From Candidatus Tectimicrobiota bacterium (GTDB taxonomy: Bacteria; JACPSX01), in NCBI GenBank assembly GCA_016193065.1, contig JACPSX010000017.1, positions 1 to 10,981 on the forward strand: 10,981 nt of DNA. The letters run 5' to 3'. This document shows, in pieces, positions 1-10,621 of the stretch; position 1 is the stretch's first letter, and every line of letters begins with the position of its first letter. The notes under the pieces are model-generated. The model did no database searches and had not been told where the DNA came from. It saw only the letters and a program-made list of their open reading frames with translations. The position numbers and the translations under genes were made by a program.

Positions 1-467
1 ATCCCGGGGATGGATATCCCTTCCGCATGGATGTCATAGCCGTTGGGGAAATACCCTCCCGGGTAGGCTCCCCCGGAATCCATCTGGTGGGCCCGGCACA
101 GGGTAAAGAACAGGAGCTCGCCCTTGTAGAAAATGGGGCGGTAGAACCCCCAGTCGGGCAAGTGGCAGCAATAGCCGTGGTAGGGGTCGTTGACCAGGAT
201 CACGTCCCCCGGATTCAAGTTCCCCTTGAACTTGTTCAGCACGTACTCCACGGAGAGCTTCCCCCCCAGGTACTGGATGGACAGGCCGATGGGGATGGCC
301 ACCGTGCGCCCCGTGCCGTCCCAGATCCCCATGGAGACGTCGTGGAGCTGGGCAATCAGGTAATTCTGGGCGGTGCGATCGATGACGTGGCGCATCTCCT
401 TGCAGGTATTCTGGAAGGAGTGCCACACGGTGGACAGAGTGAGGGGATCGACTCGACCGGCAACCAT
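1..467 (-). CDS. Hydantoinase B/oxoprolinase family subunit, N-terminal 155 codons; continues past the left window edge
   Basis: Manually translated from ATG at 467-465, 7 nt after the upstream stop: MVAGRVDPLTLSTVWHSFQNTCKEMRHVIDRTAQNYLIAQLHDVSMGIWD...LNPGDVILVNDPYHGYCCHLPDWGFYRPIFYKGELLFFTLCRAHQMDSGGAYPGGYFPNGYDIHAEGISIPG. It has the family motifs DPxT, PGDVxxxNDPY..HxPD, HxxDxGG.PG and EGxxIP, with no stop in frame. Confidence 0.93.
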   Translation of the reverse strand, partial: MVAGRVDPLTLSTVWHSFQNTCKEMRHVIDRTAQNYLIAQLHDVSMGIWDGTGRTVAIPIGLSIQYLGGKLSVEYVLNKFKGNLNPGDVILVNDPYHGYCCHLPDWGFYRPIFYKGELLFFTLCRAHQMDSGGAYPGGYFPNGYDIHAEGISIPG

Positions 468-474
468 TCTCGTT

Positions 475-2547
475 TTACCTCCGGGTGAGGATGTAGTTTT
501 TCACGCCGTCAACACAGCAGCGGTAGGAAGACGGGATGACCACCGTCGTGGTCTTCTCCTCGACGATTGCCGGGCCTTCCAGTGTGTGCCCGGCGCGTAA
601 TTTGCTGCCATCATAAATCGGGGTGTCTTCATACCCCTTGGTCAGGTTCCACAGGACAGGACGGCGGCGCTTGAGGGCCTGATCGGCCTTCACTGTCGCC
701 TGCGGAATCTCGGCCAGCTTCAAGGGGTCCTGGCGCGCCGTGGCTTTGAGCCGCGCATTGAGGAACTCTACCTCCCGCCCGGGCATGTGGAACGTAAAGA
801 GATCCTGGTGGCGGCGGTGAAAGGCCTGCACGATCTCCTCCAGTTCCCGGGAACCGATCTTCCCGATAGGTACCTCGGTCACCTCCACCTCGTGGAACTG
901 CCCCAAATAGCGCATCTCCAGCGAGCGCCTCAGCACCGTATCCTGCGGGGAAATCCCAATCTCCCCCAGAACCTGGCGGGCCTCCACCTCCATCTCCGCA
1001 AAGAGCCGGTTCACCCGCTCCAGCTCCAACAAGCTCTTGCGGGAAATAATCGAGCGGGCAAAATCCCGCCCCACCTCCATGTTCAGCATCCCAAAGGCAC
1101 TGTAGGTGGCCGCATAGCGGGGGATGATCACCGTGGGAATCTCCAGAAGCTCGGCCAGGTGCGCCCCGTGCACGGGCCCCGCGCCCCCGCCCACCACCAG
1201 GGCAAAGTCCCGCACGTCGTAGCCCCGCTTGGTGGAAATCTCGGTCATCTTGTCGGCCATCACGGAATTGACCGTGGTGAAGATCGTGCGGGCCGCACTG
1301 GGGACATCGAGCCCCAGAGGCTCCCCCACGGTGCGGATCGCCTGCTCGGCCAGATCGGGCTTCAGGGGGATTTCTCCCCCCAAGAAGTAATCCGCCGGGA
1401 CGTAACCCAACATCAGGTCCGCGTCGGTCACCGTGGGCTGGGTGCCCCCCTTCCCGTAGCATGCGGGTCCCGGATCAGCACCCGCGCTTTGCGGACCCAC
1501 CTGCAGGAGCCTCAGGGAATTGATCCAGGCAATGCTCCCCCCGCCGGCCCCCACGCTGGGGACGTCCACCATCTTCATGGCCACCCGCTCATCCCCAACC
1601 CAGTTATAATCCGTCGTCGGGATCATCCCATCCCGGATCAGGCAGACGTCGTAGCTCGTGCCGCCCATGTCCACGGAGAACAGGTTGTTGCTGTGGATGC
1701 ACTGGCCCAGCCGGATGGCGCCCGCCGGAGCCGCGGCGGGGCCCGAGCCGATCAGGGAGACCGCCCGGCGCGCCGATTCCTCCACGGATTGAACCAGGCC
1801 CCCGCCCTGAACCAGGTAGAGCGTCCCCTTGAATCCAAGCTCCCTCAACCGGTTCGTTAGGGCCTTCAGGTAATTGGCAGTAATCGGCCCCACCGCAGCA
1901 CTGACCACCGTGGTGCTGAAGCGTTCGTATTCCCTGTAGACGGGGAGGACCTCGTGAGAAGCGGTCACATAGGTACCGTTCAATTCCTGCCGGCAGATCT
2001 CCAGTGCCCGCTTTTCATGGGCTGGGTTGATGTAGCTATGTAGAAAGCAGATGGCGACTGCTTCGACCTTGTCTTCCTTTAATTTCTTGATGGCGGCGTA
2101 AACGTCTTCTTCCTTTAGAGGCTTCAGGATCTCCCCCGTATGAATCGTTCTCTCCTCGACGGGGAGGCGTAAATAGCGCGGCACCAGGGGCTTGTACGGA
2201 GGAACAAAGACATTAAAGCGGGAGGTGCGGAGGTTTTTGTAGCCCCGGCGAATCTCGATGGTGTCCCGAAACCCTTTGGTGGCCATAAGTCCCACTTTGG
2301 CGATCCGGCCCGTCAGCAAGGCATTGGTGGACAAGGTGGTGCCGTGGGCAATGAGCAGTCCCACATTGGACATGAATTGCGGCAACTCCAGGCCGAAAAA
2401 CGCAGCCGCTTTCGTTAAGACATTGGTCAAGCCAAGAGTGGGATCCTGCGGTGTGGTTGGGGACTTAAAAGCATGAACTTGTCCCTGCTCGTCAAGGACG
2501 AGGCAGTCCGTAAAAGTCCCCCCCACGTCTATCGTGGTCTTGATCAT
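475..2547 (-). CDS. Hydantoinase A/oxoprolinase family ATP-binding subunit (HyuA / acetophenone carboxylase gamma-like), 690 aa
   Basis: Motifs IDVGGTFTD, HGTTLSTNALL, REYERFSTTVV, SGPAA, DMGGTSYDV, GAGGGSIA, VGPQSAGADPGPACYGKGG, PTVTDAD, GGAGPVH, MRYLGQFHE and GPAIVEEKTTT. AAGGAG RBS at 2561-2556. Confidence 0.96.
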   Translation of the reverse strand: MIKTTIDVGGTFTDCLVLDEQGQVHAFKSPTTPQDPTLGLTNVLTKAAAFFGLELPQFMSNVGLLIAHGTTLSTNALLTGRIAKVGLMATKGFRDTIEIRRGYKNLRTSRFNVFVPPYKPLVPRYLRLPVEERTIHTGEILKPLKEEDVYAAIKKLKEDKVEAVAICFLHSYINPAHEKRALEICRQELNGTYVTASHEVLPVYREYERFSTTVVSAAVGPITANYLKALTNRLRELGFKGTLYLVQGGGLVQSVEESARRAVSLIGSGPAAAPAGAIRLGQCIHSNNLFSVDMGGTSYDVCLIRDGMIPTTDYNWVGDERVAMKMVDVPSVGAGGGSIAWINSLRLLQVGPQSAGADPGPACYGKGGTQPTVTDADLMLGYVPADYFLGGEIPLKPDLAEQAIRTVGEPLGLDVPSAARTIFTTVNSVMADKMTEISTKRGYDVRDFALVVGGGAGPVHGAHLAELLEIPTVIIPRYAATYSAFGMLNMEVGRDFARSIISRKSLLELERVNRLFAEMEVEARQVLGEIGISPQDTVLRRSLEMRYLGQFHEVEVTEVPIGKIGSRELEEIVQAFHRRHQDLFTFHMPGREVEFLNARLKATARQDPLKLAEIPQATVKADQALKRRRPVLWNLTKGYEDTPIYDGSKLRAGHTLEGPAIVEEKTTTVVIPSSYRCCVDGVKNYILTRR

Positions 2548-2555
2548 CCAAAATT

Positions 2556-2561
2556 CTCCTT
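2556..2561 (-). promoter_or_regulatory. Shine-Dalgarno (AAGGAG) of the hydantoinase A gene
   Basis: Minus strand reads TTAAGGAGAATTTTGGATG, with 8 nt between the SD and the ATG at 2547. Confidence 0.85.
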
Positions 2562-2606
2562 AAATGCGTAAAGATGGGCTGGCTAGACTGCCCCCCGGCC
2601 AACTAC

Positions 2607-2636
2607 TCTGATTCCAGTTATTTACAGGGAATCAGA
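2607..2636. repeat. Perfect 9-bp inverted repeat TCTGATTCC-N12-GGAATCAGA (leader hairpin or operator)
   Basis: Arms read directly at 2607-2615 and 2628-2636, between the putative promoter and the RBS of the minus-strand operon. Confidence 0.75.
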
Positions 2637-2675
2637 AGGGTAATTTCAGGGCAGGAACCGCAGAACAAAAGCAAG

Positions 2676-2703
2676 ATTATCACAGGCAATTGCCCATTCT
2701 CAA
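2676..2703 (-). promoter_or_regulatory. Putative sigma70 promoter of the hydantoinase operon
   Basis: Minus strand has TTGAGA (2703-2698), a 16-nt spacer and GATAAT (2681-2676), with an extended -10 TGn (TGTGATAAT). Each hexamer matches consensus at 5 of 6 positions. Confidence 0.55.
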
Positions 2704-2979
2704 TAGGCAACCAAGATTATTTTTGTAGCACGTTTTTCCCGGGAATAATCCCGCTCCTTTCGCCGTTTCTCTCCGCTGCATACGACTTTCCAGCACTGCT
2801 TTGGATGGCCTCTTCGGACCTTTCCCGCCACAGGCCCAGGGTAGGGAAAATGGCTCAAGAAAATGATGTAACTACATTCTGTACCGGGGCTGGGATCAAT
2901 GTTAATTCTTTCATGGTTGTTCTTCGAAAGGCGTGTTGGTCCATTGCCATCCCGGCGAGATCCGAAGGGACGGATGACC

Positions 2980-3672
2980 ATGCTGAAATGCCGTTGGGAA
3001 CTCTGCCCCCTGCGCCGCAACGGGATTCTCGCGGAGGAAAACGCCCAGCAGCTTGATGATTACCGGCGCCAGATCTACCCCAGTTTTTACGCCAAGCGCC
3101 AGGTCATCTTTCACGAGGGCAACCCCTGCTTGGGAATCCACGTGCTGTGTTCGGGAACAGTAAAACTGACCCAGACCGATCGCTTCGGTAGGATCCACCT
3201 GCTGAAAATCGTCAAGCCGGGAGACATCATCGGGGACATGGCAGCCTATGAATACCCGGTCTATGCGGTCACGGCCGAAACGGTCGAAAACTGTACGATC
3301 TGTTTTCTACCCAAAGCCGCCCTGCTCGAATTTCTGAACCGCCATTCCGACGTGGCTCTGCGCCTCATCTCCTTGCTGAGTCAGGAATTGCGCAACTCCC
3401 AGGAAAAGATGCGGGATTTCGCCCTGAAAGATGCCGAGGCTCGGCTGGCCACTTTCCTTACAAAACTCGGTGCCGATTACGGCGAGCGCAGCAAGGAAGG
3501 GGTCCGTTTTCGGCTCCCCTTGTCCCGCGGGGAGTTAGCCGAAGCCATCGGAGTCGCACCTGAGACCGTAATTCGCCTCCTGGGCAAGCTTTCCGAAAAA
3601 CGGATTCTAAAGGTCAGAGGCCGTCACTGCGTCATCTCGGACCCCAGCCGCCTGCAAAAGATCGCGGACTAA
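2980..3672 (+). CDS. Crp/Fnr family transcriptional regulator, about 230 aa, Cys-rich
   Basis: Effector beta-barrel (IFHEGNP..IHVLCSGTVKL...IVKPGDIIG), dimerisation helix, AEARLATFL, and HTH LPLSRGELAEAIGVAPETVIRLLGKL. Start moved from 2899 to ATG 2980 (alternative 2974) because GAAGGGA lies at 2964-2970. Confidence 0.93.
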   Translation: MLKCRWELCPLRRNGILAEENAQQLDDYRRQIYPSFYAKRQVIFHEGNPCLGIHVLCSGTVKLTQTDRFGRIHLLKIVKPGDIIGDMAAYEYPVYAVTAETVENCTICFLPKAALLEFLNRHSDVALRLISLLSQELRNSQEKMRDFALKDAEARLATFLTKLGADYGERSKEGVRFRLPLSRGELAEAIGVAPETVIRLLGKLSEKRILKVRGRHCVISDPSRLQKIAD

Positions 3673-3698
3673 GGCGGGAGGCAGGTCGCGGTGGAAAA

Positions 3699-3712
3699 CT
3701 GATTATTATCAA
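3699..3712. promoter_or_regulatory. FNR-type binding box CTGAT-TATT-ATCAA
   Basis: 9 of 10 match to TTGAT-N4-ATCAA, in the intergenic gap between the Crp/Fnr gene and an Fe-S enzyme operon. Confidence 0.75.
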
Positions 3713-3733
3713 TGTAGACCTTGCTCTTCCTCC

Positions 3734-3761
3734 TTGTTCGTAAGGCAGACCTACTTAAACT
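3734..3761 (+). promoter_or_regulatory. Putative sigma70 promoter of the oxidoreductase operon
   Basis: TTGTTC (3734-3739), 16-nt spacer, TAAACT (3756-3761). This would put the FNR box centre at about -61.5/-62.5. Confidence 0.4.
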
Positions 3762-3785
3762 TGGGTCTAAACAGATACCTGAACG

Positions 3786-3798
3786 GTTGTTTAACAAC
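3786..3798. repeat. 13-bp palindrome GTTGTT-T-AACAAC, possible operator
   Basis: Perfect 6-bp arms around one base, ending 23 nt before the gamma-subunit ATG. Confidence 0.5.
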
Positions 3799-3821
3799 TC
3801 CATCAGGATACCAAAGATTCC

Positions 3822-4412
3822 ATGTGGGAGATCCGGTTCCACGGCAGAGGAGGACAGGGAGCCGTTATTGCGTCCAAGATCCTGGCGTCCGCCCTTTTTA
3901 GGGAAGGCCTGTACACCCAGGCTTTCCCTTCCTTCGGGGCGGAGCGGCGCGGGGCTCCAGTGGCGGCTTTCCTGCGCGCCGATCGGGCTCCCATCCGGGT
4001 GCGGGGGGAGATGGCAGGCGCCGACCACCTGCTGATCCTGGATGTCTCCCTGCTTGCTCTCCCGGATCTCCTGAAAGGGTACCGGGAGTCGGGATGGATC
4101 ATCATCAACAGCCCCTGTGCCCCGCTGGATCTGGGTTTCCCCCTTCACTATCGGGTGGCCACCGTGGATGCCGACCGGATTGCCTGGGGCCTGGAGCTGG
4201 GGAGCCGGGCTTTCCCCATCGTCAACACCGCCATACTCGGGGCCTTTGCCCGGGCCAGCGGTCTGGTCTCGGTAGAGTGCCTAAACGACGCTATGAACCC
4301 CTTTATCTCCGTGAAACCCGAGAGGAATCGGAAGGCGATCCGTCAGGCCTACGAGGAGGCAAACCTTAGCGCTCCGCGACCCTTTGAGGTGGAACCGTGC
4401 GCGCAGGGATAG
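3822..4412 (+). CDS. porC: 2-oxoacid:acceptor oxidoreductase gamma subunit (PorC/PorG family), 196 aa
   Basis: EIRFHGRGGQGAV, QAFPSFGAERRGAPVAAF, IIINS, VDADRIA, PIVNTAILGAFAR and NRKAIRQAYE. Confidence 0.95.
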   Translation: MWEIRFHGRGGQGAVIASKILASALFREGLYTQAFPSFGAERRGAPVAAFLRADRAPIRVRGEMAGADHLLILDVSLLALPDLLKGYRESGWIIINSPCAPLDLGFPLHYRVATVDADRIAWGLELGSRAFPIVNTAILGAFARASGLVSVECLNDAMNPFISVKPERNRKAIRQAYEEANLSAPRPFEVEPCAQG

Positions 4413-6094
4413 AAAGCAGTCAGACCTCTACCCTCGTCGCCATATCCACCGGGACGATGGACTGGAACCACACGGGGACTTGGCGCACGCTAAAACCCGT
4501 CTTTCAGACGTTCATCCCCCCTTGCGAGTTGGGTTGCCCCACTGGCGGAAAAATGCGGGAAGTCGCGGCGCTCTTGGCTGCCGACCGATTGCGAGAGGCA
4601 TGGGAGACCTTGGTTATGAACAACCCCTTGCCCGCCGTCTGCGGCCGGGTCTGCAATCATCCTTGCGAGGAGGCCTGCAGCCGCAAGGAACTCGATGAAG
4701 CCGTTTCCCTGCGCGGAATCGAGCGTCACCTGGGGGACTTGGCCCTCAAGAATGGCTGGCACTTCTCTCCTCCAGACCAGATCTGGCCCGAGCGCGTTGC
4801 CATCATCGGCAGCGGTCCCGCAGGTCTTGCTTGCGCTTTCCACGTGCGCCGGCTCGGTTATGGAGTCACCCTGTTTGAAGCCCGAGAGACCCCTGGCGGC
4901 CTTTTACGCTACGGGATCCCCGAGTACCGCCTGTCCCGCGGCATTCTCGATGGGGAGATCTCCCACATTCTGAGCTTAGGGATCGAACTCCAGTTGCGGA
5001 GGTCACTGGGCCAAAATCTCTGGATACAGGATCTGCAGGGCTTCAGGGCGATCTTCCTGGCTACTGGTTTGAGCAAGAGCCGCCGCCTCTACATTCCCGG
5101 AGAAACGTTGCCCGGCGTCCTGTCCGGGCTGGAGTTCCTGGATACAGTGAACAGCAATTCCCGTCCCAACCCGGGCCACCATGTGGTGGTCGTTGGCGGC
5201 GGAAACACGGCCATTGACGCCGCCCGTTCAGCCCTGCGTCTTGGAGCGCGAACCCACGTGGTTTACCGGCGCACACGGGAAGAAATGCCCGCCATCTCTG
5301 AGGAAGTCGAGGCGGCTCGCAGGGAAGGGGTCGAGTTCACATTTCTCACCATACCCGTCTCCATTGAGCACTCCCAGGAAACTACAAGCGGCCGGACGTC
5401 GTTACGGCTGTGCTGCCGGCGCGCGCGCTTCGGAACCTCAGACGCCGGCGGTCGCCCGCAAGTATTCCCGATCCCCCACACCGATTTCATCATAGATGGG
5501 GTCACCAGCGTCATCGCGGCGGTCGGAGAAGAGGCAAACCTGGAGGAGCTCGATCTAAGCCATCTGCAAAGTGACGGCGGAAAACTGGCACTCAGTGCCG
5601 AGCAAGAGAGCGTGATCCCGAACCTCTTCGTGGGGGGAGATCTGGCCTCCGGCGCAGACACCGTGGCGTCGGCCCTGGCCAGCGGCAAGCAGGCCGCCCG
5701 GGCAATTCAGCGGCGTCTGCGAGGCCTGCCGGAAGGCATCTCACCAGAAACTCCCTGGACGGGAAAGATTAACCCCGATTATTTTCTCTCTTCCCCACGA
5801 GCCTCTGCTGCGACTCTTCGCTTAAGCCAACGGGAGAGTTCGTTTGCGGAGGTGAACCAGGGACTTACCCACGAGACCGCCGTTCAGGAATCCCGCCGCT
5901 GTCTTTCCTGTGGATTATGTACCCGCTGCGAGGTCTGCTGGGCCTTCTGTCCCGACCGGGCGGTGGAAAAGGGGGATGACGAATACTGGATCGATTACGA
6001 GCACTGTAAGGGCTGCGGCATCTGCGCCGTGGAATGTCCCCGGGGGGTTATCGCTCTGGCCTTGGAACACCCCTATGCGGGCCGGGAGCTCTAA
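4397..6094 (+). CDS. Delta-subunit (PorD/VorD-like) 2[4Fe-4S] ferredoxin fused with a GltD/NfnB-like FAD/NADP(H) oxidoreductase, 565 aa
   Basis: GTG start after GAGGT, overlapping the gamma gene by 16 nt. Motifs in order: NHTGTWRTLKP; PPCELGCP and CGRVCNHPCEEAC; FAD-binding IIGSGPAG; GGLLRYGIPEYRL; VVGGGNTAIDAAR..VYRR; GGD; FAEV..G...ESRRCLSC; CTRCEVCWAFCP; IDYEHCKGCGICAVECP. Confidence 0.9.
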   Translation: MRAGIESSQTSTLVAISTGTMDWNHTGTWRTLKPVFQTFIPPCELGCPTGGKMREVAALLAADRLREAWETLVMNNPLPAVCGRVCNHPCEEACSRKELDEAVSLRGIERHLGDLALKNGWHFSPPDQIWPERVAIIGSGPAGLACAFHVRRLGYGVTLFEARETPGGLLRYGIPEYRLSRGILDGEISHILSLGIELQLRRSLGQNLWIQDLQGFRAIFLATGLSKSRRLYIPGETLPGVLSGLEFLDTVNSNSRPNPGHHVVVVGGGNTAIDAARSALRLGARTHVVYRRTREEMPAISEEVEAARREGVEFTFLTIPVSIEHSQETTSGRTSLRLCCRRARFGTSDAGGRPQVFPIPHTDFIIDGVTSVIAAVGEEANLEELDLSHLQSDGGKLALSAEQESVIPNLFVGGDLASGADTVASALASGKQAARAIQRRLRGLPEGISPETPWTGKINPDYFLSSPRASAATLRLSQRESSFAEVNQGLTHETAVQESRRCLSCGLCTRCEVCWAFCPDRAVEKGDDEYWIDYEHCKGCGICAVECPRGVIALALEHPYAGREL

Positions 6095-7264
6095 ATGGAA
6101 AGTCTCAAAGCGGGAGCGCAGGTCATCGAAGGGAACACCGCGGCGGTCATCGCTGCCGCCCTCGCCCGCGTGCAGGTGATTGCGGCTTACCCGATCACCC
6201 CCTCCAGCCCCATCGTGGAGAGCCTCTCCGATTTGTGCGCCCAAGGCAAACTCCAGGCCCGCTTTATTCCCGTGGAATCTGAACATTCCGCCATGGCCGC
6301 TTGCATTGGAGCGGCCATGACCGGATGCCGGACCTTTACGGCCACCTCTTCCCAAGGGCTGGCCCTCATGCACGAGCTTCTGCACTGGTCGGCCGGCAGC
6401 CGTCTTCCGATCGTTCTGGTAAATGTGAATCGGGCCCTGGCTCCCCCCTGGACCATCTTCTGCGACCAGAGCGATGCGTTCTCCCAAAGGGACACGGGGT
6501 GGATGCAGATTTACTGCGAAACCGCCCAGGAGGTTTTGGACTCGGTCCTGCAGGCATACCGGATCAGCGAGGAAGTCCTCCTGCCCTGCATGGTGAACAT
6601 GGACGGTTTCTATCTCTCCCACACCGCAGAGCCCGTAGAGGTTCCAGATCCTAAGGAAGTCGATTGCTTTTTGCCTGGTTTTGAACCCCGCTTCCATCTC
6701 GACGCAGCCGATCCTCATGCCTTCGGTGGGGGCACTGCACCGGCCCCCTACATGGAGTTTCGCCATCAGATGCAAGAGGCCATGGAGGAGGCCAAGGACC
6801 GGATCGTGAGGGTGGGTGAAGAATTCGGCCGGCAGTTCGGCCGTTCCTACGGCTTGCTGGAACTCTACCGGGCAGAGAATGCCTCCCTTCTGGTGGTCAC
6901 CTCGGGCTCGATCACCGGTACTGCGCGCGAAGCCGTGGACGGGCTCCGGGATCAAGGGCTCGCCGTAGGGCTGCTGCGGGTGCGGTTCCTGCGACCTTTT
7001 CCCGCTGAAGAGGTACGTCGGGCGGTTTCAAGCGCAGAAACTCTCCTGGTTCTGGACCGGGCCGTCTCTTACGGCCAGGGGGGCACCTTAGCCCAGGAAT
7101 TCAAGGCAGCCCTCTACGGCCAGGACCGGCTTCAAATTTTCTCGATCGTCATGGGACTCGGCGGCGCTCCGGTGACCCGGCAGATGATCGAGGAGACCAC
7201 CCTGATGGCCCTGGAGAGGACGCTGGATCCCTGCCGGTCTCACTGGCTTGGAGGAACGATATGA
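6095..7264 (+). CDS. vorA: 2-oxoacid:ferredoxin oxidoreductase alpha subunit, 2-ketoisovalerate (VorA)-like, 389 aa
   Basis: AYPITP, VESEHSAMAACIGA, TFTATSSQGLALMHE, LHW, NRALAPPW, QRDTGWMQ, LSHT and RPFP. The LHW and APPW variants resemble Thermococcales VorA as I recall it, so the subfamily is less certain than the family. ATG abuts the upstream TAA, with a GGGAG RBS. Confidence 0.88.
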   Translation: MESLKAGAQVIEGNTAAVIAAALARVQVIAAYPITPSSPIVESLSDLCAQGKLQARFIPVESEHSAMAACIGAAMTGCRTFTATSSQGLALMHELLHWSAGSRLPIVLVNVNRALAPPWTIFCDQSDAFSQRDTGWMQIYCETAQEVLDSVLQAYRISEEVLLPCMVNMDGFYLSHTAEPVEVPDPKEVDCFLPGFEPRFHLDAADPHAFGGGTAPAPYMEFRHQMQEAMEEAKDRIVRVGEEFGRQFGRSYGLLELYRAENASLLVVTSGSITGTAREAVDGLRDQGLAVGLLRVRFLRPFPAEEVRRAVSSAETLLVLDRAVSYGQGGTLAQEFKAALYGQDRLQIFSIVMGLGGAPVTRQMIEETTLMALERTLDPCRSHWLGGTI

Positions 7265-9498
7265 TCGGCGCTCAACCTCCATTGTCCCTGCCCGCCCCGG
7301 AACTGATGGGGGCCGGCAACTTGGCCTGCGCAGGCTGCGGAGCCAACCTGGCCATGCGTCTGGCTTTGAAGGCCCTGGGAGAGAAGACCATCGTCCTGAT
7401 CCCCGCCTCTTGCTGGGCCGTCTTTGACGGCCCGTATCCGTTCTCCTCTCTGCGCGTCCCCCTGCTCCACGTGGCCTTTGAGGCAGCCGCTTCAACCGCT
7501 GCCGGCGTACGGGCAGGCCTTGCGGCCCGGGGAGATGATCAGACGCTGGTCATGGCGTGGGCAGGAGACGGGGGGACTTTCGACATCGGTCTGCAGGCCC
7601 TGTCTGCTGCGGCGGAGCGGAACGACGATTTCCTCTTTGTCTGCTATGACAATGAAGCCTACATGAACACGGGAATCCAGCGCAGTTCAGCCACGCCGCA
7701 GCAAGCTTGGACGACGACGACCCCCCTCCCAACTCCCAAAAGCCAGCCCAAGAAAAACATCATGGCCATCATGGCCGCCCATCGGATCCCTTATGGTGCT
7801 ACGGCCTGCGTAGCCTATCCCGAAGATTTGGTCGAAAAATTCCGGACCGCCCGGGAGATTCGAGGGTTCCGGTTTATCCACCTTCTAGCGCCCTGCCCCC
7901 CGGGGTGGAAGTGTGACCCCTCGCTCACGGTAACCCTGGGGAGGCTCGCGGTCAGGAGCTGTTACTTCCCTCTCTATGAGGTTCGTGCGGGGAAGAACTA
8001 CCGGATCACCATTCAGGAAAACCAGACTCCCCTCCAGGATTACGTGGCCCCCCAAGGGAGGTTCCAACACCTCACCTCGGCGGACATAGAAACCCTGGAA
8101 CGGGAAGTTCAAGAAGAATGGCAGAGGCTCCAGAGTTGCGCCTCATCGCAGACTCCGCCTTCCAGCATCCAGTTCGTCCCCATCCGGAGGAAAAAGACCA
8201 TGTATTGGGAAAAAGAGATGGAGTGCATGCCCCGTGAAGAGCTCAGGACCGTTCAGCTTCGCAGGCTGAGGGATACGGTACAGCGTGTTTCGGAAAAGGT
8301 CCCCTTCTACCAGGCAATCCTCAAGGAAAGAGGGGTGCAGGCGGACGACATCCGCTCCCTGGAAGACATAAAGGGCTTGCCTTTCACACTGAAGGACGAC
8401 TTCCGCAAGACCTATCCGTTTGGCCTCTTTGCCGTTCCGCTCAAAGAAATCGGCCGGATTCATGCCTCCTCGGGAACCACGGGGAAACCCATTCTGGGCG
8501 GGTACACACGCAAGGATCTAGATCTGTGGAGCGATCTCATGGCCCGCACGTTGACAGCGGGCTCCGTCACCCACGAAGACGTGGTGCAGAACGGCTACGG
8601 CTACGGCCTTTTCACGGGCGGGTTGGGCTTCCACATGGGAGCCGAGCGCATCGGAGCTGTGGTCATCCCTATGTCGGCGAGCGCTACAGACAGGCAAATC
8701 CTGTTCATGCAGGACCTGGGTCCCACAGTCCTTACCTGCACCCCCTCCTTTGCCCTTTACCTGGCAGAGACCATGGAGGGCATGGGAATCGACCCGCGCA
8801 AGCTCAAGCTGCGGGTGGGATTCTTCGGCGCCGAGCCTTGGACCGCGGAAGCCCGCCGCCAGATCGAGGAAAAACTCGGCTTGAGAGCCCATGACATATA
8901 CGGCCTCACGGAGATCATCGGGCCCGGAGTTTCAGTGGAGTGCGAGGCTCAAAACGGACTCCATTTGAACGAGGATCACTTCTACCCGGAGCTGATCAAT
9001 CCCGACACCCTGGAGCCCGTGGGCCCCGGCGAACCGGGGGAGCTTGTGCTGACCACCCTGACCAAGGAAGCTCTGTCGGTCCTCCGCTATCGCACCCGGG
9101 ACATCACCACCCTGAACTGGAGTCCCTGTGAATGCGGGCGTACCCTGGTCCGCATGGGGAAGGTTCTCGGTCGCAGCGACGACATGCTCATATACAGGGG
9201 AGCCAACCTCTACCCCTCTCAGGTGGAGGGCCTCCTCTTCGCCTTTGCGGAGCTGGAGCCCATCTATCTGATTGTCCTGAGCCGGGAAAAGCAACGCGAT
9301 GAACTTGAGATCCGGGTGGAGGCCAAGCCCGAGATTTACCGGGGTGGCCCCACAGCCCTCATGGAACTGGCCCAACGGATCCAGAACAAGTTCCGGGACT
9401 TCATCAACCTGTCTCCCAGGATCTCCGTGGTGGAGAGGGGATCCATCGAGCGCAGCATCGGCAAGGCCAAGCGGGTTATGGACCTGCGGGCGCAATAG
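7261..9498 (+). CDS. vorB: In-frame fusion: 2-oxoacid oxidoreductase beta subunit (VorB/PorB-like, about aa 1-292) plus phenylacetate-CoA ligase family domain (aa 314-745)
   Basis: Beta part: ACAGCG, IPASC, TPP motif WAGDGGTFDIGLQALS...YDNEAYMNTGIQRS, AHRIPY and APCPPGW. ATGA overlap with the alpha gene and GGAGG at 7250-7254. No stop before 9496-9498. Confidence 0.88.
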   Translation: MIGAQPPLSLPAPELMGAGNLACAGCGANLAMRLALKALGEKTIVLIPASCWAVFDGPYPFSSLRVPLLHVAFEAAASTAAGVRAGLAARGDDQTLVMAWAGDGGTFDIGLQALSAAAERNDDFLFVCYDNEAYMNTGIQRSSATPQQAWTTTTPLPTPKSQPKKNIMAIMAAHRIPYGATACVAYPEDLVEKFRTAREIRGFRFIHLLAPCPPGWKCDPSLTVTLGRLAVRSCYFPLYEVRAGKNYRITIQENQTPLQDYVAPQGRFQHLTSADIETLEREVQEEWQRLQSCASSQTPPSSIQFVPIRRKKTMYWEKEMECMPREELRTVQLRRLRDTVQRVSEKVPFYQAILKERGVQADDIRSLEDIKGLPFTLKDDFRKTYPFGLFAVPLKEIGRIHASSGTTGKPILGGYTRKDLDLWSDLMARTLTAGSVTHEDVVQNGYGYGLFTGGLGFHMGAERIGAVVIPMSASATDRQILFMQDLGPTVLTCTPSFALYLAETMEGMGIDPRKLKLRVGFFGAEPWTAEARRQIEEKLGLRAHDIYGLTEIIGPGVSVECEAQNGLHLNEDHFYPELINPDTLEPVGPGEPGELVLTTLTKEALSVLRYRTRDITTLNWSPCECGRTLVRMGKVLGRSDDMLIYRGANLYPSQVEGLLFAFAELEPIYLIVLSREKQRDELEIRVEAKPEIYRGGPTALMELAQRIQNKFRDFINLSPRISVVERGSIERSIGKAKRVMDLRAQ
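8200..9498 (+). CDS. paaK: Phenylacetate-CoA ligase (PaaK) family AMP-forming acyl-CoA ligase, 432 aa, with an internal start inside the fused ORF
   Basis: GGAGG at 8186-8190, 9 nt, then ATG at 8200 (MYWEKEMECMPREEL). Motifs LPFTLKDD, YPFGLFAVP, IHASSGTTGKP, YGYGLFTGGLG, GAEPW, DIYGLTEIIGPG, RYRTRD, GRSDDM and GKAKRVMDLR. The substrate is not established. Confidence 0.88.
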   Translation: MYWEKEMECMPREELRTVQLRRLRDTVQRVSEKVPFYQAILKERGVQADDIRSLEDIKGLPFTLKDDFRKTYPFGLFAVPLKEIGRIHASSGTTGKPILGGYTRKDLDLWSDLMARTLTAGSVTHEDVVQNGYGYGLFTGGLGFHMGAERIGAVVIPMSASATDRQILFMQDLGPTVLTCTPSFALYLAETMEGMGIDPRKLKLRVGFFGAEPWTAEARRQIEEKLGLRAHDIYGLTEIIGPGVSVECEAQNGLHLNEDHFYPELINPDTLEPVGPGEPGELVLTTLTKEALSVLRYRTRDITTLNWSPCECGRTLVRMGKVLGRSDDMLIYRGANLYPSQVEGLLFAFAELEPIYLIVLSREKQRDELEIRVEAKPEIYRGGPTALMELAQRIQNKFRDFINLSPRISVVERGSIERSIGKAKRVMDLRAQ

Positions 9499-9508
9499 GA
9501 GACCACCC

Positions 9509-10621
9509 ATGGCAAGAATTGCCGTCATCCCCGGAGACGGCATCGGCGTGGACGTCACCCGGGAAGCCATCAAGGTCCTGGAGACCTTAAGGGAGCTGAT
9601 GGGGACTCCACTGGAACTCGTCGAGTTCGATCTGGGCGCCGAGCGAACCCTGAGGACAGGGGTGTCCCTTCCTCCAGGAACCTTCGAGGATTTCCGGCAA
9701 AACTACGATGGGATCTTCCTGGGCGCCCTGGGGGACCCGCGGATTCCCGACATGTCTCACGCCCGGGAGATCCTCCTGGAGATGCGCTTTCAACTGGATC
9801 TCTACATCAACCACCGCCCCGTCCGCCTCCTGGACGAATCCCTCTGCCCTCTGAAAGGTAAAGGAGTAAGCGACGTCAACTTCGTGGTCTTCCGGGAAAA
9901 CACCGAGGGGCTCTATGTGGGCATCGGAGGAATCTTCAAGAAGGGGACGCCGGATGAGGTGGCCCTTCAGGAAGAAGTGAACACCCGCAAGGGGGTCGAG
10001 AGGATCATTCGCCACAGTTTTGAGTACGCCCGGGCCCATGGCCTGGGCAAGGTGACCATGGCGGACAAGAGCAACGCCCTGCGCTACGGCCACGATCTCT
10101 GGCAGCGTGCCTTCCAGGAAGTGGCAGCGGAGTACCCGGAAGTGGAAGCGGAGCATCTCTTCATCGATGCCCTGACCATGCAGATGATCCGCAAACCGGA
10201 GCAATTCCAGGTCATCGTGACGAACAACATGTTTGGCGACATTATCACAGATCTCGGCGCTGCACTCCAGGGCGGGCTGGGCATGGCGGCTTCCGGGAAC
10301 ATCAACCCGAACGGTGTCTCCATGTTCGAGCCGGTCCACGGGTCAGCTCCAAAGTATGCGGGGCAGAACGTGGCCAATCCCATCGGGGCCGTCCTCACGG
10401 CGCAGATGATGCTCCAGCACCTGGGCTTCCCACGGGAGGCGGCGGTGGTGGAAGAGGCAGTCGTGGAGGCAATCCGCCGCCGGCAAGTGACGCGTGACCT
10501 GGGAGGCCCTCTGGGCACGCGAGAGGTAGGGGATTTCATCCGTCGGGAGATCGGTGAATTGGCCAAAACCATGACGCACGGCAACTCATTGGGGCGTGCG
10601 ACGGGCACCCGTCCATCGTGA
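9509..10621 (+). CDS. leuB: Isocitrate/isopropylmalate dehydrogenase family protein (LeuB-like), 370 aa
   Basis: ATG 9509 follows AGGAG (9497-9501), which overlaps the upstream stop. Motifs IAVIPGDGIG, R..LDLYINHRP, FRENTEGLY, DKSNAL, FIDALTM, NMFGDIITD and FEPVHGSAPKYAGQNVANP. Confidence 0.88.
   Translation: MARIAVIPGDGIGVDVTREAIKVLETLRELMGTPLELVEFDLGAERTLRTGVSLPPGTFEDFRQNYDGIFLGALGDPRIPDMSHAREILLEMRFQLDLYINHRPVRLLDESLCPLKGKGVSDVNFVVFRENTEGLYVGIGGIFKKGTPDEVALQEEVNTRKGVERIIRHSFEYARAHGLGKVTMADKSNALRYGHDLWQRAFQEVAAEYPEVEAEHLFIDALTMQMIRKPEQFQVIVTNNMFGDIITDLGAALQGGLGMAASGNINPNGVSMFEPVHGSAPKYAGQNVANPIGAVLTAQMMLQHLGFPREAAVVEEAVVEAIRRRQVTRDLGGPLGTREVGDFIRREIGELAKTMTHGNSLGRATGTRPS

Follow-up and report, generated by a model that had tools for sequence, protein, structure and literature searches.

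Is a gene that joins a subunit of a 2-oxoacid oxidoreductase to an acyl-coenzyme A (acyl-CoA) ligase a genuine bifunctional gene, or does it only reflect a stop codon lost by error or in recent time? This question was raised by a 10,981-nucleotide stretch of DNA (hereafter, the window) covering positions 1–10,981 of contig JACPSX010000017.1 from a Candidatus Tectimicrobiota bacterium (assembly GCA_016193065.1). ORF listing and translation revealed one open reading frame (ORF) of 745 codons at 7261–9498 on the forward strand, encoding in succession the thiamine pyrophosphate (TPP)-binding beta subunit of a 2-oxoacid:ferredoxin oxidoreductase (OFOR), a linker and a PaaK-type ligase. A first-pass annotation, made from the sequence alone, had offered three readings of this gene: a sequencing error, a recent stop loss and a real fusion, the last perhaps channelling acyl-CoA and perhaps produced in 745- and 432-residue versions. 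The comparisons reported here indicate that it is very probably a genuine bifunctional gene, in which the beta subunit of a four-subunit POR/VOR-type oxidoreductase is translated as one piece with a full PaaK-type ligase.

Architecture of the fused gene

The ORF itself, Pfam and NCBI-type profiles all agreed with the first-pass annotation that beta subunit and ligase share a single frame (Table 1). In the beta half, TPP_enzyme_C (PF02775) matched residues 69–207 (65.9 bits). The VorB-type model NF008818 covered residues 9–294 with 388 bits and the PorB model NF008819 scored 350 bits; both fall below their cut-off of 405, and the beta half is accordingly given no substrate class. Residues Cys23, Cys26, Cys51 and Cys212, the GDG motif at 102–104 and N131 were kept in all 22 beta rows of an alignment of 35 sequences (A3: nine fusions, 13 free ligases and 13 free beta subunits). 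The four cysteines are presumably the ligands of the proximal [4Fe-4S] cluster.

In the ligase half, AMP-binding (PF00501) and AMP-binding_C_2 (PF14535) were found at residues 403–743, and the PaaK model TIGR02155 aligned to residues 322–743 over its positions 2–422 of 422 (526 bits; cut-off 646.3). A second PaaK model, NF041878, scored 552 bits (cut-off 700). Judged by its profile matches, the ligase half is a member of the PaaK family and not a proven phenylacetate enzyme. Within the P-loop SSGTTGKP at 403–410, G405, T406, K409 and P410 were conserved in 22 of 22 ligase rows and T407 and G408 in 21, and the C-terminal catalytic Lys735 was kept in all 22.

Structural comparisons gave a consistent picture. 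A sequence search of the PDB matched the ligase half to PaaK1 (2y27, 410 bits, residues 320–743) and BT_0428 (4r1l, 409 bits), and the beta half to the beta chain of Methanosarcina pyruvate:ferredoxin oxidoreductase (PFOR; 9bt4_C, 230 bits). An AlphaFold model built on alignment A3 had a mean predicted local distance difference test (pLDDT) score of 76.4 and a predicted template modelling score (pTM) of 0.72. With Foldseek, the ligase half of this model matched 4rvo_B with a target-normalised template modelling (TM) score of 0.95 at 45% identity and 2y27_A with a TM score of 0.93, while the beta half matched 9bt4_C (target-normalised TM score 0.78, 41% identity). None of the Foldseek matches listed spans both halves, the aligned stretches being at most 488 columns. 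Both halves thus look functional, with their catalytic signatures retained, and the gamma, delta and alpha partners of the beta subunit are all encoded in the same window.

The junction was largely as the first-pass annotation had described it. The beta domain ends where expected, since in free beta subunits conservation reaches as far as the W..L motif, beyond which come tails of 0–28 residues. A linker does lie between the domains, although it is 23 residues long (291–313; QSCASSQTPPSSIQFVPIRRKKT) rather than about 22. The full PaaK-type N-terminus, with 432 residues from Met314 (ATG at 8200–8202) to the end, was borne out by the alignment to TIGR02155 from position 2, and the GGAGG at 8186–8190 stands nine nucleotides before this ATG, exactly as noted. 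None of the three forward frames has a stop codon in 8100–8210, and the linker does contain CAG, TCA and TCG codons that are one change from a stop.

Table 1. Coordinates of the fused gene, its parts and the neighbouring genes in the window
Feature	Position	Strand	Evidence or remarks
Fused ORF, 745 aa	7261..9498	+	OFOR beta subunit, linker, PaaK-type ligase; same-length ORF in G001
PorB/VorB-type TPP-binding beta domain, residues 1–290	7261..8130	+	NF008818, conserved residues, fold
23-aa linker, Q291–T313	8131..8199	+	dN/dS, pLDDT, tails of free beta subunits
Shine-Dalgarno-like GGAGG, N9 before internal ATG	8186..8190	+	Read from sequence
Complete PaaK-type acyl-CoA ligase domain, residues 314–745	8200..9498	+	TIGR02155, start alignment, fold
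Crp/Fnr-type regulator, upstream of operon	2899..3672	+	cNMP_binding + HTH_Crp_2
OFOR gamma subunit	3822..4412	+	PF01558; TIGR02175, 174 bits (cut-off 81)
GltD-like NAD(P)H/FAD subunit fused to PorD-like two-cluster ferredoxin (delta)	4397..6094	+	NF009410, 513.9 bits (cut-off 516)
OFOR alpha subunit	6095..7264	+	POR_N + PFOR_II; PorA_Arch, 455 bits
LeuB-like isopropylmalate dehydrogenase, 10 bases past fused gene	9509..10621	+	NF002898, 414.8 bits (cut-off 393)
LeuC-like aconitase-family large subunit, N-terminal part, cut by contig end	10596..10979	+	PF00330, positions 1–122

The open frame in independent genomes

A search of 41 genomes recovered the same 745-residue frame in a second species (G001), the sole other genome of the genus searched besides the source genome of the window (G000). 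Residues 1–744 were matched at 87% amino acid identity with no stops, and a G001 contig aligned colinearly with positions 1–10,010 of the window (81.5% nucleotide identity). The other 39 genomes were labelled only as belonging to the same domain, so the lineage seems to be without close sampled kin. BLASTP against P0002, a cluster representative and near-identical variant of the G001 protein P0130, gave 647 identities over 745 residues with no gaps. The 90% cluster of P0002 has 12 members: eight distinct 745-residue variants, all from ENA/JGI contigs and all with the G001 linker, three 432-residue calls and one 319-residue fragment. One of the 432-residue calls, P0121, has the same sequence as the C-terminal 432 residues encoded by the G001 frame. 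In G001, a readable genome with this ligase sequence, the frame continues upstream without a stop and takes in the beta subunit.

Further assemblies bridge the junction. Logan contigs of two sequencing runs, X1 (record 7, covering 7640–9498) and X2 (record 16, covering 7645–9474), each differed from the window at six positions with no gaps, and none of the listed differences lies in 8100–8210; both runs belong to one study and may include the source sample of the window, which makes them weak independent support. The sequencing runs that contain the stretch were groundwater metagenomes (11 runs listed, none of them RNA).

These results separate the three readings of the first-pass annotation. 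A sequencing error is rejected by the same frame in a second species, in eight metagenome variants and in the contigs of two other runs, and the aligned orthologous locus in G001 is open with no stop. A stop loss is unsupported as a recent event, because both species carry the fusion despite a synonymous divergence (dS) of about 0.8–1.1; on this comparison, the fusion is older than the divergence of the two species. The remaining reading, a real fusion, is supported by the evolution of the linker.

Coding evolution and predicted flexibility of the linker

The linkers of G000 and G001 differ at 14 bases in 23 codons with no insertion or deletion. These differences are concentrated at third codon positions (2, 3 and 9 at positions 1, 2 and 3; binomial P = 0.017 against an even spread) and correspond to 8.5 synonymous and 5.5 non-synonymous changes, giving a dS of 0.87 and a ratio of non-synonymous to synonymous divergence (dN/dS) of 0.13. 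Between the same genomes, dN/dS was 0.065 for the beta part (dS 1.14) and 0.097 for the ligase part (dS 0.77). Random sets of 14 substitutions kept the linker open in 60% of cases; thus, the evidence for the fusion is the pattern of change and not openness alone. Given its low dN/dS and third-position bias, the junction evolves as coding sequence, which argues that the linker is translated and under purifying selection. Rfam gave no match within the window, and a promoter and terminator scan of the window found no signal above that in shuffled sequences. From these sequence comparisons, we infer a real, selected and lineage-restricted fusion.

In the AlphaFold model, the last beta helix spans residues 273–295, residues 298–314 have a pLDDT below 50 and the first ligase helix begins at residue 318. 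The two enzymes are therefore predicted to be joined by a flexible tether of roughly 17–22 residues.

Origin of the fusion

Met314 aligned with the initiator methionine in 12 of 13 free PaaK homologues, the thirteenth beginning one column later. On the other side of the junction, 32 free beta subunits end 0–28 residues past the end of their BLAST match, and it is this match end that lies at or shortly after the conserved W..L motif. Because Met314 sits at the ancestral start and free beta subunits have such tails, the linker is probably the old C-terminal tail of the beta subunit followed by a former intergenic spacer with its ribosome-binding site. The fusion would have arisen when the beta gene lost its stop codon, so that translation continued through a short spacer into the adjacent ligase gene. 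This would have happened before the genus divided into its two known species.

Ninety other loci were fetched, 48 with the beta subunit only, for which same-strand maps were drawn, and 42 with the ligase only. At least 1500 nucleotides of downstream sequence were available in 29 of the 33 beta-only loci checked. No conserved gene was found downstream of the free beta homologues: 24 ORFs were located there, and the 18 that were scanned are mutually unrelated. A match in genome G038 to residues 267–743, interrupted by two stops, was considered as a beta remnant before a ligase and rejected, its upstream gene being TonB-like.

Rarity of the fusion and relation to known OFOR–PaaK associations

In a collection of 5.8 billion clusters queried with residues 200–420, only P0001 and P0002 span the junction among the best 120 of 7,822 matches. 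The closest free beta subunit shorter than 409 residues was 60% identical among the matches listed (best 120 of 2,120), and G000 encodes no other ligase closer than 37% identity. A HMMER search of 1.84 billion representatives found no protein with both halves among the best 150 of 24,313 matches, which is weak evidence of absence because a representative library can hide fusions (the cluster of P0001 is not visible there as one). A literature search for an OFOR subunit fused to a PaaK-type or AMP-forming ligase found nothing relevant. Five proteins of about 680–730 residues (P0213, P0239, P0246, P0261 and P0275) match the beta half in their C-terminal part and are probably alpha::beta fusions.

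The association itself is already known; the covalent join to the TPP beta subunit appears to be new. The nearest counterpart is the cluster of iorAB with a PaaK-like arylacetate-CoA ligase, for example in Bacteroides, where a PaaK-family ligase likewise directly follows the last OFOR subunit gene. BT_0428 (PDB 4r1l/4rvo), which we take to be the ligase gene adjacent to indolepyruvate oxidoreductase (IOR) in Bacteroides, shares 45% identity with the ligase half (TM score 0.95). In those clusters, however, the genes are separate and the IOR has two subunits, whereas the fused gene places the ligase in one covalent chain with the TPP beta subunit of a POR/VOR-type enzyme that has four subunits. 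The colocalisation of Bacteroides IOR with an AMP-forming arylacetate-CoA ligase is reported in PMC13285125, where a biosynthetic role is proposed and an involvement of IOR in phenylacetate formation is also stated.

A similar arrangement was seen upstream of free PaaK homologues. Among 32 of 35 loci scanned (L030, L032 and L033 were dropped as their neighbours matched that of L028 in size and position), the upstream neighbour was a PF01558 (IorB-type) gene at a gap of 0–43 nucleotides in nine. The others were an aminotransferase (five), an ACT protein (three), an enoyl-CoA hydratase (two), another PaaK (one), members of other families (seven) and genes with no family (five).

A second kind of fusion was also recovered. 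P0133 (635 aa) joins IorB to PaaK, and P0282 (640 aa), named in NCBI 'MAG: indolepyruvate oxidoreductase subunit beta [Acidobacteria bacterium]', is of the same build and 81% identical to P0133. As in the window, a terminal OFOR subunit lies N-terminal to a complete PaaK ligase across a short, basic, proline-rich junction, and this fusion is equally rare (two clusters). In a quick tree, both kinds of fused ligase fell in one group of seven rows with a support of 92 in the Shimodaira–Hasegawa-like approximate likelihood ratio test (SH-aLRT), with no resolution inside the group. In contrast to the gene studied here, the partner is a POR/gamma-type domain (PF01558) and not a TPP beta subunit, and the junction methionine, kept in P0133, is isoleucine in P0282.

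Other known systems resemble the fused gene in parts. The ligase half is 46–47% identical to PaaK1 and PaaK2 of Burkholderia cenocepacia (2y27, 2y4n and 2y4o; TM score 0.93) and shares their P-loop and C-terminal lysine, but those enzymes are free-standing and serve aerobic phenylacetate catabolism, whereas the window ligase lies below the TIGR02155 cut-off. Like the four-subunit POR/VOR-type PFOR of Methanosarcina acetivorans (9bt4), the operon has the gene order gamma-delta-alpha-beta, and its beta half is 41% identical to 9bt4_C. The combination of an OFOR core with a flavin/NAD(P)H subunit recalls phenylglyoxylate:NAD+ oxidoreductase (PadEFGHI), and Pad models were among the matches. Here, however, the flavoprotein is fused to delta, and all Pad models scored far below their cut-offs (PadI 218/700, PadG 312/700, PadE 145/300 and PadF 43.5/150). 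Fusions among OFOR subunits are described as well known (PMC13285125), but these join OFOR subunits to each other and not to an AMP-forming ligase.

Gene neighbourhood

The gamma, GltD-like/delta and alpha genes lie upstream of the fused gene in the same operon (Table 1). The GltD-like and delta gene carries Pyr_redox_2, Fer4_20 and Fer4 domains in Pfam, with PorD_Arch at residues 503–557. The stop of the alpha gene overlaps the start of the fused gene (ATGA, 7261–7264), and the end of the gamma gene overlaps the GltD-like start by 16 bases; such overlaps point to translational coupling along the operon. Of the 48 beta loci from metagenomes and relatives, 26 have the same gamma/GltD/delta/alpha/beta module. 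NAD(P)-linked OFORs of this gamma/GltD-delta/alpha/beta build thus seem to be widespread and little described, and a literature search for a GltD-type OFOR subunit found nothing relevant.

Beyond the end of the window contig, another G000 contig (C5; L094, 3–5980) holds the rest of a LeuC-like gene, a LeuD-like gene, IorA (697 bits against a cut-off of 650.9), IorB, a short isopropylmalate/citramalate/homocitrate-synthase-like gene and a binding protein of the branched-chain amino acid type. In G001 (loci L095 and L096), one contig links LeuB-like, LeuC-like, LeuD-like and IorA genes. Joining the G000 contigs C293 and C5 was attempted and rejected, as they have no exact overlap and only four of eight overlapping residues agree; the adjacency is shown in G001 only. 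The fused gene therefore appears to head a larger cluster that brings together two OFORs, one ligase and a complete gene set for 2-oxoacid chain elongation. Divergent hydantoinase/oxoprolinase A and B genes lie at 3–2547 on the reverse strand, adjoining the Crp-type regulator, and a second HydA paralogue (60% identity) lies just beyond in G001 (L093, 7465–13,845).

Proposed tethering and direction of the reaction

We propose that the two activities share an acyl-CoA, channelled by the tether. Through the linker, each beta subunit would keep one ligase attached to the oxidoreductase, so that acyl-CoA from one active site would be released beside the other and both activities would be made at a ratio of 1:1; we slightly favour this part of the model. 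As to direction, the most likely single option, which we rate at a little below even, begins with the ligase converting an organic acid, ATP and CoA to acyl-CoA. The oxidoreductase would then combine acyl-CoA with CO2 and two electrons to give a 2-oxoacid, and this product would feed the neighbouring LeuA/C/D/B-like chain-elongation genes and amino acid synthesis, that grading applying to the steps jointly. This assimilatory direction is favoured by the general tendency of AMP-forming ligases to make acyl-CoA and by the biosynthetic genes nearby. Weighing a well-supported fusion together with a mechanism so far only proposed, we regard the explanation as a whole as reasonably probable.

Several points weigh against this explanation. 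Three cluster members are 432-residue calls starting at the internal ATG, and some populations may have a stop in the linker. The presumed precursor, with separate beta and ligase genes in that order, did not turn up: a ligase match was absent from all 48 beta-only loci. The comparison covers two species and near-identical metagenome variants, and the selection test is small, with P = 0.017 from 23 codons only. The ligase lies under both PaaK equivalog cut-offs (526 vs 646 and 552 vs 700), so that its predicted substrate is not fixed. With regard to direction, established redox potentials make NAD(P)H too poor an electron donor for the reductive carboxylation of acyl-CoA, and a GltD-like NAD(P)H/FAD subunit for electron input therefore favours oxidative decarboxylation over assimilation.

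Among the alternatives, the one that survives best accepts a single chain but sees in the tether nothing beyond co-expression and 1:1 dosage, with both enzymes drawing on a common acyl-CoA pool. The confinement of the fusion to one genus, with no other beta::ligase fusion in the best 120 of 7,822 or the best 150 of 24,313 matches, the free PaaKs that work beside separate OFOR genes elsewhere and the predicted disorder of the linker would all suit such a neutral or regulatory fusion. However, the linker is as constrained as the domains on either side (dN/dS of 0.13 vs 0.065 and 0.097), and a second, independent fusion of an OFOR subunit to PaaK suggests a recurrent advantage. We therefore consider this alternative unlikely.

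A further alternative keeps the coupling and reverses its sense: a 2-oxoacid would be oxidised to acyl-CoA with NAD(P)+, and the ligase would run backwards (acyl-CoA + AMP + pyrophosphate to acid + ATP + CoA), conserving energy. By redox potentials, the GltD-like subunit fused to delta suits this oxidative direction. On the other hand, the neighbouring LeuA/B/C/D-like genes are biosynthetic, and we know of no PaaK that acts in reverse. Use of an AMP-forming acetyl-CoA synthetase in reverse for ATP synthesis is reported for Syntrophus aciditrophicus (PMC4992975), whereas AMP-forming ligases are described as typically favouring acyl-CoA synthesis (PMC13285125). On balance, catabolic coupling appears rather improbable, a shade more so than a purely regulatory fusion.

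In its most elaborate form, the assimilatory model would describe an acid-to-2-oxoacid carboxylation machine in an uncultivated groundwater lineage: a ligase tethered to an NAD(P)H-linked four-subunit OFOR would activate scavenged organic acids for reductive carboxylation with no release of the acyl-CoA, within an 11-gene cluster with an IOR and a complete LeuA/C/D/B-like set, and a free 432-residue ligase would come from the same frame as a second product. Taken jointly, these elements form an unlikely, speculative picture.

A possible internal start of the ligase

The Shine-Dalgarno-like motif before Met314 was kept in both species, as GGAGG-N9 in G000 and AGGAG-N7 in G001, the latter resulting from one synonymous change (CGG to CGA) and one Lys-to-Arg replacement (AAA to AGA). 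Across 1,488 long ORFs of the source genome, a strong Shine-Dalgarno sequence (GGAGG or AGGAG at −17 to −5) stands before just 3.2% of the 10,218 in-frame ATGs inside them. The motif doubles as codons for a conserved basic patch (RRKK or RRRK). Retention of the motif in both species is suggestive of internal initiation but is only a lead, and it is a tentative possibility that the retained motif and ATG yield a free 432-residue ligase in addition to the fused chain.

It is a different matter whether the internal start dominates, such that most of the ligase would be a free 432-residue protein and the 745-residue chain would be minor or confined to assembly of the complex. A strong, well-spaced motif kept through different bases, its use of the rare arginine codons AGG (10.9% of arginine codons in the source genome) and AGA (6.6%), its rarity before internal ATGs and the conservation of Met314 in both species speak for such a start. 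Nevertheless, amino acid constraint on the basic patch may explain the motif, the junction methionine was lost in one lineage of the IorB::PaaK fusion, and ribosomes on the beta part must read through regardless; a dominant internal start is thus improbable. Weakest of all is an artefact, in which a sequencing or assembly error removed a stop, or the gene is freshly broken, and two separate proteins are made: a single change would turn several linker codons into stops and some databases give 432-residue ligase calls for the sister population, but the same open frame without indels in a second species, eight metagenome variants and two further run assemblies, the coding-type substitutions in the linker at a dS of about 0.9 and the lack of a close stand-alone beta subunit among the matches listed (best 120 of 2,120 short ones) make it highly improbable.

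Implications

The link between PaaK-type ligases and OFORs has so far been inferred mainly from gene neighbourhood. A covalent fusion adds 'Rosetta-stone' evidence that these ligases share their acyl-CoA with 2-oxoacid oxidoreductases, although its general effect is modest, as the fusion is limited to one genus and the association itself was known. The direction of such pairs is still debated between amino acid synthesis from scavenged acids and amino acid fermentation. With its single chain, defined 1:1 stoichiometry and NAD(P)H-type electron module, the fused enzyme would offer a compact system for addressing both coupling and direction. The locus also carries a warning for annotation, because public 432-residue ligase calls for the sister population start at the internal ATG, yet the G001 frame is open upstream. 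For the organisms themselves, a fusion apparently kept by selection in two related groundwater bacteria suggests that the two enzymes are tied to one pathway.

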